DNA from: Bacteroidota bacterium | GTDB taxonomy: Bacteria > Bacteroidota > Bacteroidia > Chitinophagales > Chitinophagaceae | DNA length: 64,000 nucleotides | Reading direction: 5' to 3' | Assembly (NCBI GenBank): GCA_030706605.1 | Contig: JAUZOE010000007.1 | Coordinates: 8,729 to 72,728, forward strand | In this document: positions 50,862 through 64,000 of the stretch, one piece after another | Position numbering within the stretch: the stretch's first letter is position 1 | Layout: each line of letters opens with the position of its first letter | Made by a program: the position numbers and the translations under genes | Notes under the pieces: generated by a model | Seen by the model: the letters and a program-made list of their open reading frames with translations, nothing else | What the model was told of the DNA's origin: nothing | Database searches by the model: none

Positions 50862-52526
50862 ATGAAGTTAAAAATACAATTGATCGTGCCTTCTGTAACA
50901 TATTTAAAAAACGAACTACTTTTTTTACTCTCAGTGATCTTGTTGTTTTTCACCTCATGTAGTCATCATGAAAATGTGAAAAATATTTTTCATTACAATG
51001 AGCAATCCGGCATTGCCACACTTGACCCTGCATTTGCCAAGAATCAATCTATCATGTGGGCAGTGCACCAGATTTATAATACACTTGTGCAGACAGATAA
51101 TCATTTGAATATTGTTCCATCACTTGCAAAAAGCTGGGATGTATCTCCCGATAACCTGACTTTCATTTTTCATTTACGCAACGATGTCTTCTTTCAGGAT
51201 AATGAGACATTTCCCGGCGGGAAAGGAAGAAAAATGACAGCTAAAGATGTGGTATATAGTTTTGAAAGAATTCTTGATAAAAATACTGCCAGCAGCGGGG
51301 CCTGGATTTTTAATGGGAGGGTAGATACCGTACGGCCTTTTACCGCCATTGATGACACTACTTTTCAATTAAAATTATTAAAACCCTTCCACCCGATTAT
51401 CGGGGTTATGAGTATGCAATATTGTTCCATAGTTCCCAAAGAAGTAGTACAAAAATATGGCAAAGATTTTCGCCGGCACCCCTGTGGCACCGGTCCATTT
51501 CAGTTCGTAGCCTGGGAAGAAGGACAAGCCCTTATTCTGAAAAAAAATCCATTGTATTTTGAAAAAGACAGTACAGGCCAAAGACTTCCTTACCTGGATG
51601 GAATTAAAATTTCCTTCCTCGAAAATAAAGCAACCGAATTTTTAGAATTCCAGGAGAAACACCTTGAATTTATTAATGATATTGACCCTTCTTTTAAAGA
51701 TGAAGTGCTTACCAAAAGCGGCACTCTCAGGAAAGACTGGCAGGGGAAAATCGTATTGGTAAAACATCCTTATCTCAATACAGAATACCTCGGTTTTTTA
51801 ATGGATACCAGTTTGAGTATTGTCAATAATTCCCCGCTCCGTTTATTAAAAGTGAGGCAGGCCATTAATTACGGGTTCAACAGGAGAAAGATGATGGTAT
51901 ACATCCGTAATTCTATCGGTACACCTGCAGAAAGTGGCTTCATTCCCGCAGGCTTCCCTTCATTCGATTCAACTGCGGTTATTGGCTACCATTACAATCC
52001 AGCAAAGGCTTTGCAATTATTAAAAGAAGCCGGTTACCCGAATGGAAAAGGGCTGCCCGCTATCAAATTATTAACTGTCCCCATTTACTCAGACCTGGCC
52101 AGTTATATTGCCAACGAACTCGGGCAAATTGGCATTAAGATACAGGTAGAAGCTATTCAAAAAAGCTTGTTGCTTGAACAAACTGCCAAATCAGAAGCTT
52201 TGTTTTTTCGTGGAAGCTGGATTGCCGATTACCCGGATGCAGAAAATTTTTTAAGTGTTTTTTATGGGGGAAATCCTGCTCCTCCCAATTATACCAGATA
52301 TAAAAATTCAAAATATGATAAATTATATGAAGCTGCATTAGCAGAAAAAAATGATTCCATCAGGTATAAAATTTACCAGCAGGCCGACCAATTAATAATC
52401 AAAGATGCGCCCATAGTACCTTTGTGGTACGATATGGTAATTCACCTGGTACAACCATATGTAAAACATTTTCCACCCAACAGCTTAAATTTGCTTGAAT
52501 TAAGAAGAGTAAAACTTGAAAAGTAA
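50862..52526 (+). CDS. ABC transporter substrate-binding lipoprotein, family 5 (peptide/nickel)
   Basis: Lipobox FTSC, TLDPAFA, PSLAKSW.VS.D.LTF.FHLR.DV.F, CGTGPFQF, VRQAINYG, WIADYPD. Confidence 0.9.
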   Translation: MKLKIQLIVPSVTYLKNELLFLLSVILLFFTSCSHHENVKNIFHYNEQSGIATLDPAFAKNQSIMWAVHQIYNTLVQTDNHLNIVPSLAKSWDVSPDNLTFIFHLRNDVFFQDNETFPGGKGRKMTAKDVVYSFERILDKNTASSGAWIFNGRVDTVRPFTAIDDTTFQLKLLKPFHPIIGVMSMQYCSIVPKEVVQKYGKDFRRHPCGTGPFQFVAWEEGQALILKKNPLYFEKDSTGQRLPYLDGIKISFLENKATEFLEFQEKHLEFINDIDPSFKDEVLTKSGTLRKDWQGKIVLVKHPYLNTEYLGFLMDTSLSIVNNSPLRLLKVRQAINYGFNRRKMMVYIRNSIGTPAESGFIPAGFPSFDSTAVIGYHYNPAKALQLLKEAGYPNGKGLPAIKLLTVPIYSDLASYIANELGQIGIKIQVEAIQKSLLLEQTAKSEALFFRGSWIADYPDAENFLSVFYGGNPAPPNYTRYKNSKYDKLYEAALAEKNDSIRYKIYQQADQLIIKDAPIVPLWYDMVIHLVQPYVKHFPPNSLNLLELRRVKLEK

Positions 52527-59903: not shown

Positions 59904-62009
59904 ATGAAACTTTTTCCACCATCAGCGCCTCATCAGCTTGAACTTGATAAAATTAAAATATTACTCGCAGGACACTGCCGTTCAGAATATGCACGTAAAA
60001 AAGCAGAAGACTTAAGAATACATACCCGCAAAGAATTTATAGAACCGCAATTACTTCAAACGCATGAATACAAATTATTGTTTCAAAATTATTTGTATTT
60101 CCCCGATGATGCCGTTTTAAATCTTTCACGCGAACTGAAACTTTTAAGTATTGATTCTTCCATTCTCACCGGCGAACAGTTTTTACAAATAAAAAAACTC
60201 GCCCTCGCCATACAACAAATTTTCCGCTGGTTTTCTCCCGACCGCAAAGTGGCTTACCCTACCCTGTCATTGATTATTGAAGACACTTATTTTGAAAAAA
60301 ATATCGGGCAGATGGTAGATGAGATATTAGATGAATACGGTATTGTGAAAGACAGCGCATCAGAAAAGCTGGCAACGATAAGAATGTCTTTATATAAAAA
60401 AAGGACAGAACTTAAAAGGCTCTTCGACCGCATTGTAAGCAAATTAAAAAAGCAGGGATACCTGGCAGATATTGAAGAAAGCTTTATCAATGGCAGGCGT
60501 GTGCTGGCTGTATTGGCGGAGCAGAAAAGAATGATAAAAGGAATATTGCATGGAGAAAGCGACAGCCGCCGCACTTCATTTATTGAGCCTGCAGAAACGG
60601 CTCACCTCAATAATGATATTTTTTCTTTGGAAAATGAGGAACGCAGAGAAGTGAATATCATCCTGCAAAAACTTACTACAAAAATGCGGGCTTACCATTC
60701 GCTTCTGAGCATTTATCACCAGGTGATCGGGGAATATGATTTTATAAGAGCCAAAGCAAAACTGGCGCTGGAATACAATGGCAACCTGCCGGCACTGCAT
60801 GACAAAGCATTACTTAAATTATCAAATGCGGTGCATCCACTGCTTTTTATTTATAATGAAAAACTGCAAAAGCCTACCATACCGGTCAATCTTTCGCTGG
60901 ACGACAAGAACCGGATATTGGTAATCAGCGGCCCCAATGCAGGGGGCAAAACGGTTACGTTAAAAACTGCAGGTCTTTTGCAAATGATGTTGCAAAGCGG
61001 GCTATTGGTTTCATGTAGCCCTGACAGTGAGTTTGGCATTTTCAAACAACTGATGATCCATATTGGCGACACACAAAGCCTCGAATTTGAATTGAGTACT
61101 TATTCGTCGCACCTGATCAACATGAAATATTTTATGGAAAATGCCAATGGAAAAACATTATTTTTCATTGATGAACTGGGCAGTGGCAGCGATCCAAACC
61201 TCGGAGGCGCCTTTGCAGAAGTGATTATGGAAGAACTTGCCAAGAAACATTCACTCGGCCTGGTAACTACTCATTACCTCAACCTGAAAGTAATGGCCAA
61301 TAAAGTGAATGGCATCATCAACGGAGCTATGGCTTTTGATGAAAAGAATTTAAAGCCATTGTATAAACTGATTACCGGGAAACCCGGAAGCTCCTATACC
61401 TTTTCCATTGCAGAACGGATAGGCCTGCCGCAACATTTAATCAATAAAGCGAGAAAGCTGGTAGATGAAAATCATTTCAGTCTTGATAAATTATTAAACA
61501 GCACCGAGCAGGACCAACAATTAATACAAGCAGAAAAAAAGAACCTGGCTAAGTTGGTAAACGAAAATGAAAAGTTGCAGAAGGAAATGCAACAGGTGAT
61601 TCATAAAGAAAAGCATCAACAGCAAATAGAATTACTAAAAGAACAAAACCAGGTAAGCGAGGCAAAGATTACTTACCTCAAAGAAATGGACCGAAAACTG
61701 AAGACCATTTTAGCGGAATGGAAAAAAACAGATGATAAAAATAAAGTAATCAAAACGATGCAGGCATTACTTTTTAAACAACCCGAAAAACAAATACTGA
61801 AGAAAAAACAAAAGAAAATCGATAGTAAATATATTGAAATCAATGAGCCGGTAAAGCAGGGAGACAAAGTGATGATGAAAGCCAGCCGGCAGGTAGGTGT
61901 GGTGATTAATATCGTTAGAAAGAAAGCCATAGTGCAGGTGGGTGCTGTACCCATAACAGTGAGTATTGAAGACCTGGTGGTAGTGAAGGAAAAACTTCTG
62001 CCGACATAA
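59904..62009 (+). CDS. mutS2: MutS2 family ATPase lacking the C-terminal Smr domain
   Basis: VISGPNAGGKT Walker A, IGDTQS....LSTYSSHL, FIDELGSGSDP, TTHY, GKPGSSY; coiled coil, then a KOW-like end (GDKV...VGVV...AIVQVG). Confidence 0.9.
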   Translation: MKLFPPSAPHQLELDKIKILLAGHCRSEYARKKAEDLRIHTRKEFIEPQLLQTHEYKLLFQNYLYFPDDAVLNLSRELKLLSIDSSILTGEQFLQIKKLALAIQQIFRWFSPDRKVAYPTLSLIIEDTYFEKNIGQMVDEILDEYGIVKDSASEKLATIRMSLYKKRTELKRLFDRIVSKLKKQGYLADIEESFINGRRVLAVLAEQKRMIKGILHGESDSRRTSFIEPAETAHLNNDIFSLENEERREVNIILQKLTTKMRAYHSLLSIYHQVIGEYDFIRAKAKLALEYNGNLPALHDKALLKLSNAVHPLLFIYNEKLQKPTIPVNLSLDDKNRILVISGPNAGGKTVTLKTAGLLQMMLQSGLLVSCSPDSEFGIFKQLMIHIGDTQSLEFELSTYSSHLINMKYFMENANGKTLFFIDELGSGSDPNLGGAFAEVIMEELAKKHSLGLVTTHYLNLKVMANKVNGIINGAMAFDEKNLKPLYKLITGKPGSSYTFSIAERIGLPQHLINKARKLVDENHFSLDKLLNSTEQDQQLIQAEKKNLAKLVNENEKLQKEMQQVIHKEKHQQQIELLKEQNQVSEAKITYLKEMDRKLKTILAEWKKTDDKNKVIKTMQALLFKQPEKQILKKKQKKIDSKYIEINEPVKQGDKVMMKASRQVGVVINIVRKKAIVQVGAVPITVSIEDLVVVKEKLLPT

Positions 62010-62043
62010 AAGATAGCTATCTGTATACATGAATGGATTGCTT

Positions 62044-62200
62044 GTCACTTTTTCTCTTGAAAGAAAAAGTAACCAAAAAGTTCAAGAACAACCCAATCGC
62101 TCTGCGTGTTTGTTCGGCCTACGCCACCGTACCTCTTCAATGAATAGCAGCCGCGTCCTGCAACCCCACAAAGCCAGGAGAAGACTCGGCCGGGGTGAGA
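62044..62200. ncRNA. structured intergenic element with an H-type pseudoknot (probable dispersed repeat or ncRNA)
   Basis: Stem GTCACTTTTTCT (62044-55) / AGAAAAAGTAAC (62062-73); its loop CTTGAA is complementary to TTCAAG (62081-86); further stem GAACAA (62086-91) / TTGTTC (62110-15); GC-richer than the flanks. Confidence 0.5.
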
Positions 62201-62234
62201 TTTATTTTCAATAATTAAATATTTAGTTTTCTTC

Positions 62235-64000
62235 TTAGAACGGAATCCCAAAATTTACATAGCTCAATACTTTTTTCGAATTACCACTATACATTAAACT
62301 AAATTCCAATGGGCCGATTGGGGTATTATATGCAAAGGTAGCTGCATAGCCAGTGAGCCAATTATCAAATTTTAATTGACGATCTTCACTTATAAAATTA
62401 TTGACCAGCGCATTTGCTTTCGCCATTAAGTACAGGTTTTTCGTTAGCTGGTAGTTGAAGCCAATTAACAGCGAAGCAACGCTCGGCGTACTTACAGTAG
62501 TTTCATTAAGTCCTGCAAATAAAACCTGGTTTCTTATAGTTTTGGTCAAACCTCCGATCTGGAAATTATTTACCAGGTTTTGTTTGTAATTAAAATTGAT
62601 GCCTGATTGAAATAAAGTGAGAAAAGTAAGATTTTTTAGTATTGGAGTATACGCTTCTGCATCCAAAACCATTCGTTGATAATTATCATAATTGATTCCT
62701 ACGGAATCCACATTTGATAAGAGGTTCCCGTTTAAATAAAAATTTACATTAGGATTTTGGTTATATACCATGCCAAATTCTGCATTGATTTTAATTCCTT
62801 TTTTGGGGTATACACTTTTATCTAATGTATTGGCGTTAAAATATACAAATGAAGTTAAAAAATCGTTTCTTCCCTTTGCCTCCAATTGTGATTGAATCAG
62901 GGGGTTGAATCTTATTGATTCATAACGGCTCCCAATACCCGCAGTAAAGCTGCGGCTTCCTGAGTATTCAGATTTTACTTCACCTTCAAAATAATATTGC
63001 CTATATTGACCACTTTTATTAAAATTATCATAGCTGTCTGTCTTATAGCTTTCAAATTGCAATTTAGGTATAAGCGCTATGTTTTTATTATTGCCGAAAT
63101 ATTGCAAATGCTCACCCCTTAATCGAAAATTTTCCCCAATATTTAAAGTGAGCAGGCTTCTTGAATAAGGTGTAAAGAAATCGCGGGTAGTTAAGTTGGT
63201 GATCACACTTATGCCGCCAAATTCATTGTAATGTAGTCCTAACTTGGCGTAGGTAGAGGGATTCTCTTTTACATTGAAAATAATTTTTGAAGAACCATCG
63301 GGTTCTGGTTCTAAAAAGTAATTGATACTACGGTAATAACGGGTACCGAAAACCTTTCGGATGGCTTTTGAAATCTCCGCTTCAGAATAAAATTTGTTGG
63401 TATGAAAGCCCATGGCATGAATAAAATAAGTTTCAGTTGTTTTAACAAGACCTTCAATTTTATAACTACTGATAAAAACAGAATCTCGTTTTGGAAGCCG
63501 GTTTGTATCCGGAATTAACGTTCCATAAATGCTGTTTAAAGAATCGGCAAGATGCTTTAAAGCGGGATATAATTTTCTTCCTTCGTTGTTGCCAATTTCT
63601 ATTATTTTGTCTGCCTTATTAAAACTTCCCATAGAGTAATCTTCTAATGGCTGCGAAACAAATAAATTGCAAAGAGGCACTTCCTTTTTATAATCTTCCG
63701 CTTCTTTTAAAAAAACAAGTTGTAATAAAATATCTACAGGGGTTTTTAATTTTTCTTGTGGGTACAAACCTGCCGTAACACTGCTTCCTATAACAAAATC
63801 AGCGCCCATTTTTTTTGTATCTATTACCGGGAAATTTCGTGTTACACCTCCGTCCACTAATGCATGTCCTTCGTAATCAACTGCAGAGAAAACGGAAGGT
63901 ATTGCCATGCTTGCCCGTACTGCCGTGGTGATTTCTCCCGAATCTAATACAACAGCTTCGCCGTTAGAAATGTCGGAGGCGACACATTTAAAAGGAATGG
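62235..64000 (-). CDS. patatin-like phospholipase with POTRA and beta-barrel C-terminus (PlpD-like); 5' end lies beyond the window
   Basis: IPFKCVASDISNGE.VVL.SG..TTAVRASMAIPSVF, LVDGGVTRNFP (DGG motif), POTRA-like region, barrel ending YVNFGIPF. Confidence 0.88.
   Translation of the reverse strand, partial: IPFKCVASDISNGEAVVLDSGEITTAVRASMAIPSVFSAVDYEGHALVDGGVTRNFPVIDTKKMGADFVIGSSVTAGLYPQEKLKTPVDILLQLVFLKEAEDYKKEVPLCNLFVSQPLEDYSMGSFNKADKIIEIGNNEGRKLYPALKHLADSLNSIYGTLIPDTNRLPKRDSVFISSYKIEGLVKTTETYFIHAMGFHTNKFYSEAEISKAIRKVFGTRYYRSINYFLEPEPDGSSKIIFNVKENPSTYAKLGLHYNEFGGISVITNLTTRDFFTPYSRSLLTLNIGENFRLRGEHLQYFGNNKNIALIPKLQFESYKTDSYDNFNKSGQYRQYYFEGEVKSEYSGSRSFTAGIGSRYESIRFNPLIQSQLEAKGRNDFLTSFVYFNANTLDKSVYPKKGIKINAEFGMVYNQNPNVNFYLNGNLLSNVDSVGINYDNYQRMVLDAEAYTPILKNLTFLTLFQSGINFNYKQNLVNNFQIGGLTKTIRNQVLFAGLNETTVSTPSVASLLIGFNYQLTKNLYLMAKANALVNNFISEDRQLKFDNWLTGYAATFAYNTPIGPLEFSLMYSGNSKKVLSYVNFGIPF

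Follow-up and report, generated by a model that had tools for sequence, protein, structure and literature searches.

The window analysed here is a stretch of 64,000 nucleotides from the genome of a Bacteroidota bacterium of the family Chitinophagaceae (contig JAUZOE010000007.1 of assembly GCA_030706605.1). Near its end, the spacer between two convergent genes holds a dispersed repeat element characterized by a hairpin whose loop pairs with the sequence beyond the stem, a 43-nt unit that we refer to as the head (62044-62086). The upstream gene encodes a MutS_V plus MSSS (MutS2-type) protein and stops at 62007-62009. The downstream gene, on the minus strand and with its stop at 62235, encodes a patatin plus Omp85_2 protein, of which the Omp85_2 barrel lies within the window and the N-terminal patatin domain falls past its end. 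The whole spacer (61992-62204) is a mosaic of repeat modules (Table 1).

The pairings that the initial annotation had read from the letters are all present. In the stem of the first hairpin (P1), GTCACTTTTTCT (62044-62055) faces AGAAAAAGTAAC (62062-62073) and 11 of the 12 positions pair, the exception being C62046.A62071. Its loop, CTTGAA (62056-62061), complements without a mismatch the sequence TTCAAG (62081-62086), which lies 7 nt past the stem, and the extension of this helix to 7 bp can form through T62055-A62087, yet it competes with the stem. The second hairpin (P2) was likewise found, with its GAACAA/TTGTTC base, inner CA/TG step and CGC-TCT-GCG cap. As for the GC-rich tail of that description, G+C-rich sequence does lie 3' of P2, but past 62147 it belongs to a different repeat.

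Table 1. Parts of the repeat element and adjoining repeat modules between the mutS2-type and patatin genes
Feature	Positions	Strand	Remarks
Upstream repeat module	61992-62043	+	Starts in the last five mutS2 codons (..CTTCTGCCGACATAA) and reaches the head; includes AATGGAT (62033-62039)
Foot of hairpin P1, 5' strand GTCAC	62044-62048		Pairs with 62069-62073; holds the conserved C.A mismatch
P1 pyrimidine arm TTTTTCT	62049-62055		Helix 1, 95% paired; double changes at 11 of 12 pairs
P1 loop CTTGAA, one strand of the pseudoknot helix	62056-62061		Helix 2, 94% paired; cross-phylum complementarity
P1 purine arm AGAAAAA and foot 3' strand GTAAC	62062-62073		Sequence and covariation of helix 1
Linker C-AAAAA-G, proposed third strand	62074-62080		Three-way covariation
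TTCAAG, second strand of the pseudoknot helix	62081-62086		Complementarity and covariation
Hairpin P2	62086-62115		Outer GAACAA/TTGTTC; inner C62094-G62108 and A62095-T62107; apical CGC-TCT-GCG (62098-62106)
Conserved 3' tail of the core module (GGCCnnCGCCACCG...TTCAATGAATAGCA)	62116-62149	+	Own-genome copies reach 62149; covariance model R1 covers to 62129
Separate G+C-rich repeat module	62147-62204	+	Own copies elsewhere in the genome

Copies from this genome and its relatives, that of the window among them, were used to build a covariance model (R1), which the 90-nt core at 62040-62129 matches with 112.5 bits and E = 2e-23. Sixty-nine copies were aligned to the model and pairs were counted on a structure that includes the helix between loop and downstream sequence, a helix that is absent from the model used for alignment. 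Of all cells, 94.5% were paired compared with 75.5% in shuffles, changes on both sides were seen at 23 of the 28 pairs, and controls in which the strands were slid against each other reached just 28-60% pairing. The two helices of P2 (helices 3 and 4) are 97.5% and 90% paired with double changes at 10 of 10 pairs, its three tiers all covary, and its loop has the family consensus CTCCG, a conserved cap. The P1 foot, of 4-5 bp, also covaries across genomes (GTCAC/GTAAC, TCCAC/GTGGA, GTAC/GTAC, GTTC/GAAC and TTAC/GTAA), and its C.A mismatch, which is a G.U on the minus strand, was seen in 32 of 61 aligned copies. These comparisons establish the Watson-Crick helices.

The helix that makes the pseudoknot follows the same rule. 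The initial annotation had proposed covariation of this pairing as a check and a lack of compensatory changes as a refutation; the helix does covary, as CTTGAA/TTCAAG, CTTGAC/GTCAAG and CTTGAT/ATCAAG. In the family, four of the pseudoknot pairs do not vary and the last one occurs as UA 25, AU 24 and CG 10 times. Across phyla at least 19 different words of at least 5 nt are found, for example TCGCC/GGCGA, GTGGGC/GCCCAC, CGTGC/GCACG and TGCCC/GGGCA, and the longest complement between loop and flank is on average 3.72 compared with 2.86 +/- 0.08 when partners are shuffled. The head is thus an H-type pseudoknot in the sense of two crossing helices, both with covariation behind them, and the comparison indicates that it is under strong structural selection across phyla.

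The linker between the stem and TTCAAG had been treated in the initial annotation as a mere spacing of seven nucleotides. It turned out to have the register of a third strand along the stem. In the window the three blocks are TTTTTC (62049-54), GAAAAA (62063-68) and AAAAAG (62075-80), and A62075-79 plus G62080 is the parallel complement of T62049-53 plus C62054. In the same way, the linker of other copies is the parallel complement of the T-rich arm, and so a mirror repeat of the purine arm, and never its antiparallel complement nor a direct repeat. A C in the T-rich arm is always matched by a G in the A-rich linker at an equal distance from the foot. The arm of the window, T5CT, goes with the linker A5G, and other copies combine T6CT with A6G, T7CT with A7G, TTTTCT with AAAAGA, both TTTCTTTTT and TTTCTTTT with AAAGAAAA, TTTTCTTT with AAAAGAAA, TTTTTCTT with AAAAAGAA and TTTTTTCT with AAAAAAGA. 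Run lengths of arm and linker track each other from 4 to 8, and two different registers were found within one genome.

The register was counted with an anchored pattern on unique heads. Among 30 cases with asymmetric arms, 20 are parallel and one is antiparallel, the latter being a wrong-strand reading of a palindromic hairpin; the remaining asymmetric cases are wrong-strand parses or loop-closing pairs, and the linker is parallel in 20 of the 21 informative variants. Where a pair is inverted, with a G in the pyrimidine arm, the linker usually has an A. On the other strand this places U opposite a C-G inversion, and U.C-G is a triple that pyrimidine-motif triplexes tolerate. Seen from the minus strand, the pyrimidine loop 1 and the purine strand of stem 2 run in parallel and covary layer by layer. 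The three-strand register is thereby established as a property of the family. A mirror repeat kept in register with a duplex has no Watson-Crick rationale and is for this reason the signature of an intrastrand triplex, which, judging from the covariation, the head would physically form.

The element belongs to a repeat family, as a count of copies makes plain. The initial annotation had suggested such a count by BLAST and had considered that a single copy would speak against it. In its own genome the spacer gave 50 matches that resolve into modules, and the core (about 62030-62149) is present in at least about 16 copies, several of them at contig ends. In roughly half of these the apical part of the second hairpin is enlarged by a 55-nt insert. 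In metagenome assemblies, contig depth rises 50-100 fold exactly across 62032-62092 and contigs break there. When 61900-62300 was compared with the genome (C numbers denote its contigs), matches to C22, C17 (two) and C45 began at 61992-61996, which marks the start of the upstream module. The G+C-rich module recurs at C67:73535-73583, in the same orientation and about 800 bases past the window end, as well as at C45:63046, C36:4243, C45:181776, C29:226 and C1:215701. The patatin/Omp85 gene is hence bracketed by direct repeats, this module lying both downstream and upstream of it. Clusters in the genome mix these modules with others, including a second head family (e.g. CTTGAT...ATCAAG then GCT...GCTAAAAAT), and also carry small nested hairpin inserts.

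Several side observations were made on the repeats of this genome. The word AATGGAT at 62033-62039, of the form AYGGAY, stands a few bases 5' of the head in many copies, and Pseudomonas copies have ACGGAT close to the head. At C45:181477-181562, outside the window, an insert of roughly 85 bp sits precisely within the P1 loop of a head (TTTCAAG|TCCACAG...GTTACTT|AAGAGAAAAAG) with a possible AAG duplication; it resembles a further small mobile element, one with the loop as its target. Contig ends carry 21-23 repeats of a 140-bp sequence with the ending ..TAGCAACTTGAATTAATTA (C2:1-142, C8, C13, C33, C47; also C23:925-1061). These are presumably the ends of an abundant insertion sequence, unrelated to the head element, by which the assembly was fragmented. 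On C3:82741-107033 and C70:123570-151156, short repeat clusters occur roughly every 2.5 kb, which suggests paralogous gene arrays with repeat-bearing spacers.

At the locus itself, repeat similarity begins at 61992, within the last five codons of mutS2 (..L L P T *), and the stop codon is also inside the repeat. MutS2 relatives align just to residue 195-196 of 199 (preceding VVVKEK) and then have unrelated tails. From these alignments, an insertion seems to have replaced the natural 3' end of the mutS2-type gene. The finding that the repeat provides the last codons and the stop argues for an insertion rather than a designed 3' untranslated region. The element was absent after mutS2 in 17 relatives, whose MutS2 orthologues were also not followed by patatin.

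The distribution of the family was established at several depths. The element was found in 13 of 41 close relatives and is patchy within the genus: besides the genome of the window, 10 of 24 genomes of the same genus carry it, with copy numbers across the genus that differ widely (0 to 20 or more), and in other families of the same order 3 of 16 genomes do. With a covariance model of hairpins 1 and 2, and at most 14 matches counted per genome, the element was recovered at full length from 124 of 301 Chitinophagaceae genomes and from 80 of the 151 genera. Moreover, the 43-nt head recurs almost letter for letter across phyla, as found with the pattern CACTTTTT-N6-14-AAAAAGTAACCAAAAA in one genome per species (at least 120 loci). 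Among the matches listed are Bacteroidota (Chitinophagaceae, Saprospiraceae, Sphingobacteriaceae, Cytophagales, Bacteroidales), Pseudomonadota (Pseudomonas, Stutzerimonas, Cupriavidus, Comamonas, Noviherbaspirillum, Rubrivivax, Gallionellaceae, Psychromonas, Cellvibrionales), Bacillota (Oscillospiraceae and other Clostridia), Myxococcota (Cystobacterineae) and Patescibacteria. In Fusobacteriota, a near-identical head variant is present six times on the Ilyobacter polytropus megaplasmid, one copy being an element of 430 bp bounded by two inverted heads. In Ilyobacter, Pseudomonas and Cupriavidus, heads occur as inverted pairs at distances of 430-700 bp; the window copy is single-headed. The mention, in the initial annotation, of similar units in other Bacteroidota fits these data, and the family extends past that phylum to at least six phyla in all.

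Plasmid matches of the head of the window element were limited to the Ilyobacter megaplasmid and a Parabacteroides plasmid. No match was found in phage records searched with the window element, in plasmids searched with the Pseudomonas element or in E. coli genomes searched with the Pseudomonas-type head. Tandem arrays of heads were observed in an uncultured Chitinophagaceae, MFD05442 (CAWFYG010000032.1, locus L059, 1598-1990; roughly nine 44-bp units whose CAAGAG flank pairs with the CTCTTG that stem and loop make up) and in Patescibacteria (locus L113, 1132-1257; 3 units of 47 bp). The MFD05442 genome also has an array of whole elements with a period of 392 bp (L032/L045). In Pseudomonas hunanensis (L092, 3150-4100) and P. 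neuropathica (L091, 5600-5900), an extra G+C hairpin stands directly 5' of GTCAC (e.g. CCGCCCTTACGGCGGG); together with the T run, this hairpin of proteobacterial copies is terminator-like on the plus strand. Inverted copy pairs in these Pseudomonas loci enclose ordinary Pseudomonas REP sequences.

The mosaic clusters, the small nested inserts and the tandem head arrays are traits of selfish DNA, and the interval behaves as such: it is non-autonomous, and probably mobile or, failing that, duplicative. The alternative offered by the initial annotation, a non-autonomous mobile element or a structured RNA, holds as far as a repeat and a structured nucleic acid are concerned; its mobility is inferred from these traits, and no empty site was found. 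Taking all the evidence together, we consider it rather probable that the element is a selfish and probably mobile non-autonomous repeat whose minus strand, when single-stranded, forms a triplex-locked pseudoknot, with RNA somewhat likelier than DNA as the folded molecule.

In the proposed fold, the minus strand would be read as CUUGAA (stem 1), C-UUUUU-G (loop 1), GUUACUUUUUCU (5' strand of stem 2), UUCAAG (stem 1) and AGAAAAAGUGAC (3' strand of stem 2), which is the order of a classical H-type pseudoknot. CUUGAA, the complement of 62086-62081, would pair with the loop UUCAAG of the hairpin GUUACUUUUUCU/AGAAAAAGUGAC, and C-UUUUU-G would run in the major groove of this hairpin, parallel to the purine arm. 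About six base triples are predicted, five U.A-U and one C+.G-C, and the 5-bp foot (GUUAC/GUGAC, with one G.U) would space the exit of the third strand across the groove. The folded molecule would be a transcript rather than single-stranded DNA, by a modest preference. The triplex knot may then serve as a compact nuclease- or helicase-resistant end module of a repeat RNA, or as the structure recognized by a trans-acting factor.

The preference for the minus strand comes from several indirect arguments. The conserved C.A of the plus strand becomes G.U there, and that strand offers two pyrimidine runs and one purine run. The constant foot of 4-5 bp would suit the span that a third strand must cross, with one or two bases, from an A-form deep groove to the 5' end of stem 2. 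On the plus strand, one base would have to carry a purine third strand back across the paired foot. The sole TwoAYGGAY hit, below threshold and in a Pseudomonas copy, also falls on the minus-equivalent strand. The arguments for RNA are indirect as well; Pseudomonas copies are present at high depth in RNA sequencing assemblies.

A number of observations weigh against this interpretation. On neither strand does the 225-nt spacer have a remarkable minimum free energy (z = about -0.8), so that the support rests on comparison and not on thermodynamics. With regard to mobility, the mutS2 loci of the 17 relatives offer no orthologous empty site, metagenome contigs are broken at the repeat and contain no joint, and no target-site duplication was detected. 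The linked nuclease or transposase that the initial annotation had suggested looking for did not appear: open reading frames (ORFs) of at least 100 aa clustered across the 120 cross-phylum loci were housekeeping families and spurious repeat ORFs, with no recurrent neighbouring protein. The Y1_Tnp profile matches in 34 of 41 relatives, whether or not they have the element, and the only RAYT-like gene of the genome is flanked by a different repeat. With regard to strand and molecule, G.U-type mismatches outside the foot are rare and strand-symmetric (17 and 21 of about 1,780 cells), hence uninformative on the strand, and they fit DNA-level pairing or decaying copies as well as RNA. The identical sequence offers on the plus strand a purine-motif arrangement (A.A-T, G.G-C). 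In the subfamily of the window all six loop bases are paired and there are no connecting loops, so either one or two pairs at the top of the stem or some of the knot have to open; a C+.G-C triple in addition requires protonation. Copies lie in either orientation to genes, an RNA would need its own promoter or read-through, and no promoter for an element transcript was identified. The Pseudomonas RNA contigs are unstranded, concern a multicopy sequence from another phylum and may include DNA carry-over, and none of the RNA runs searched for the window sequence contains this organism.

The RAYT-like gene just mentioned is a 197-aa Y1_Tnp-like ORF (about 50950-51500, 34 bits) within C7:49735-51546. 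The repeat on both its sides (..GGCGTATCTGTGCC.. / ..GCTGCATATCTGC..) has 4-6 other copies, an arrangement that matches the REPtron-like organization described for Bacteroidetes subclass 2.6 (PMC6006769). The abundant insertion sequence of the genome, seen at about 22 contig ends, has termini unrelated to the element.

Other explanations were weighed against that of a folded minus strand, somewhat likelier RNA than DNA. The most serious, although we give it clearly less credit, is that the element acts at the DNA level as an A/T-rich intrastrand-triplex (mirror-repeat) motif like BoxC/PIT/TM_ECO, folding in single-stranded or supercoiled DNA and serving as a replication or recombination hot spot or as a structure for a single-strand-specific (HUH-type) copying enzyme, RNA being incidental. 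Pairing is almost purely Watson-Crick on both strands, with neither wobble asymmetry nor an orientation bias relative to genes, and several copies lie at contig breaks and in rearranged mosaics; tandem arrays suggest slippage. The order of one pyrimidine and two mirror-repeated purine blocks is also the class that forms a DNA triplex in vitro for TM_ECO and is tied there to genome rearrangement (PMC4666352). With the foot paired, however, the purine third strand of the plus strand would have to turn back over five base pairs through one linking base, and the minus-strand arrangement would better suit the groove geometry of A-form RNA. Conservation of a G.T would be more surprising in a DNA hairpin than that of a G.U in RNA, no HUH enzyme co-occurs with the element, and A/T-rich triplex motifs were rated near chance by Holder et al. 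(PMC4666352). An extension of the RNA reading, on the other hand, makes the head a cross-phylum RNA module, in which an H-type pseudoknot with 5-9 layers of U.A-U and C+.G-C triples, their register maintained by selection, at the 3' end of a dispersed-repeat transcript caps it against 3' exonucleases and helicases, or is the handle of an RNA-guided or RNA-mediated mobility. It is put forward tentatively, as a role that we hold to be possible more than expected.

That the element is instead a cis-acting RNA specific to this locus, a bidirectional terminator or a 3'-end exonuclease block for the convergent mutS2 and patatin transcripts, appears improbable. It is hairpin-rich and does sit between two convergent stop codons, the RNA contig of the gene upstream of one Pseudomonas copy stops at the element with low depth beyond, and REP elements stabilize upstream mRNA (PMC6006769). 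Against this, the 42 copies for which gene context was determined lie in tandem (23; 14 and 9 by orientation), convergent (11) and divergent (8) spacers in near-random proportions, the divergent ones being promoter spacers, and their orientation is random; this leaves the role of 3'-end protector for mutS2/patatin mRNA, raised in the initial annotation, unsupported. P1 is rich in A and U, and a G+C stem with a U tract behind it is found on neither strand. The mutS2 gene does without the element in the 17 relatives, and it is the repeat itself that supplies the last codons and stop of the gene. An intrinsic (Rho-independent) terminator was rejected on the A/U-rich P1, a P2 with no T run after it on either strand and the 8 of 42 copies in divergent spacers. 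Finally, a chance low-complexity palindrome or a small protein-coding gene can be set aside almost entirely. A/T runs easily yield fortuitous stems, the folding z-score is ordinary and ORFs do exist at 62029-62214 (+, 61 aa) and 62045-62251 (-, 68 aa), but the covariance-model E-value of 2e-23 and hundreds of homologues with compensatory changes speak otherwise, and indels and module insertions between copies break any reading frame. The 61- and 68-aa ORFs were ruled out as genes by these indels.

Among described systems, the BoxC/PIT/TM_ECO repeats of E. coli, which are of the DNA intrastrand-triplex type, come closest. Intrastrand-triplex motifs were reported to be abundant in bacteria by Holder et al. 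2015 (PMC4666352), following Hoyne and Maher; TM_ECO/BoxC is a G/C-rich Py-Pu-Pu repeat of Proteobacteria that folds into a DNA triplex in vitro and is a marker of unstable loci (PMC4666352). Like them, the element is multicopy and intergenic, consists of pyrimidine-purine-purine blocks with mirror-repeated purine blocks, varies patchily in copy number between related strains and lies in rearranged loci; the third block of the head mirrors the second, in triplex register with the first. On the contrary, TM_ECO is G/C-rich (CCCTCNCCC-N3-6-GGGNGAGGG-N3-GGGNGAGGG), restricted to Proteobacteria and described as a purine-motif DNA triplex that has no pseudoknot, and the head does not match its consensus. 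The head has A/T-rich blocks of variable length (4-9) and a different spacer, a paired and covarying 5-bp foot (GTCAC/GTAAC) that separates the blocks, a covarying loop-flank helix as a lock and a conserved second hairpin after it, and is common to at least six phyla. The words 'pseudoknot' and GTAAC/GTTAC do not occur in the text of PMC4666352.

The element also resembles REP/BIME/REPIN sequences, being high-copy, intergenic, hairpin-forming, species-patchy and non-coding, with mosaic clusters and inverted doublets. The head is nevertheless an A/T-rich 12-bp stem preceded by TTGCTT and not a tagged G+C-rich palindrome, its core is conserved across phyla and not species-specific, and it has a third-strand register and a pseudoknot. 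A REP/BIME in the RAYT sense was rejected: there is no GTAG/CGTC tag and no cognate RAYT, and Y1 genes are uncorrelated. As far as the searches reach, the element does not look like a classical MITE either: inverted head pairs exist in the three genera named above, the window copy has one head, and neither a target-site duplication, an empty site nor a related transposase turned up.

The telomerase RNA pseudoknot and the SAM-II and preQ1-II riboswitches are H-type pseudoknots with a major-groove pyrimidine-motif triplex. The minus strand of the element would be alike in its stem 1, its U.A-U layers and a U-rich loop 1 that runs in parallel with the purine strand of stem 2. The named RNAs are functional, occur in single copy and have a ligand or a protein partner, whereas the element is a dispersed repeat; its stem 2 has 12 bp with a non-triplex foot and loops 2 and 3 are near zero in the subfamily.

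The search of Rfam that the initial annotation had recommended, run at a permissive E-value on 61800-62500 and at gathering score on 10 loci from other phyla, returned no Rfam 15 match at gathering score, only chance-level miRNA or snoRNA hits. A literature search by sequence string gave chance matches only. TwoAYGGAY (RF01731; Weinberg et al. 2010, PMC2864571) is an orphan motif of gamma-proteobacteria, Clostridiales and gut metagenomes, a distribution that overlaps that of the head. A partial TwoAYGGAY hit was found 70-130 nt from the head of a Pseudomonas reidholzensis copy, on the minus-equivalent strand, at 30.8 bits for a threshold of 43; none was found in the window at E <= 10, in the 10 loci at gathering score or in a second Pseudomonas locus, and the body of the Chitinophagaceae element is a different module. 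A preprint (10.64898/2026.09.22.753630) treats TwoAYGGAY at length; a term count over its full text gives 'pseudoknot' 12 times and 'triplex' or 'triple helix' 0 times. The P. fluorescens repeat R178 (Silby 2009; 101 bp with an internal 11-bp inverted repeat, in all three strains) may be the Pseudomonas form.

The element is thus the Chitinophagaceae member of a very widespread family of dispersed repeats that has no Rfam entry. For a non-coding repeat it is unusual that 40-50 nt stay near-identical from Pseudomonas to Chitinophagaceae, Clostridia, Myxococcota and Patescibacteria, and three-way covariation is unusual as well. Together they point to a strong shared constraint, namely a fold and probably a partner, that lies outside any catalogue. 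In practical terms, such elements break assemblies, create spurious small ORFs and can remodel gene ends. If the triplex forms in DNA, the intrastrand-triplex repeats of E. coli would be extended to an A/T-rich, pseudoknot-locked and pan-bacterial family, which would bear on genome instability. If it forms in RNA, a bacterial class would join the very short list of natural long RNA triple helices and might provide a compact stability or recognition module for engineering. Should the head moreover cap the 3' end of a repeat transcript, it would be a counterpart in function, though not in topology, of the ENE/MALAT1-type triplexes, and would rank among the most widespread uncatalogued RNA folds in bacteria.

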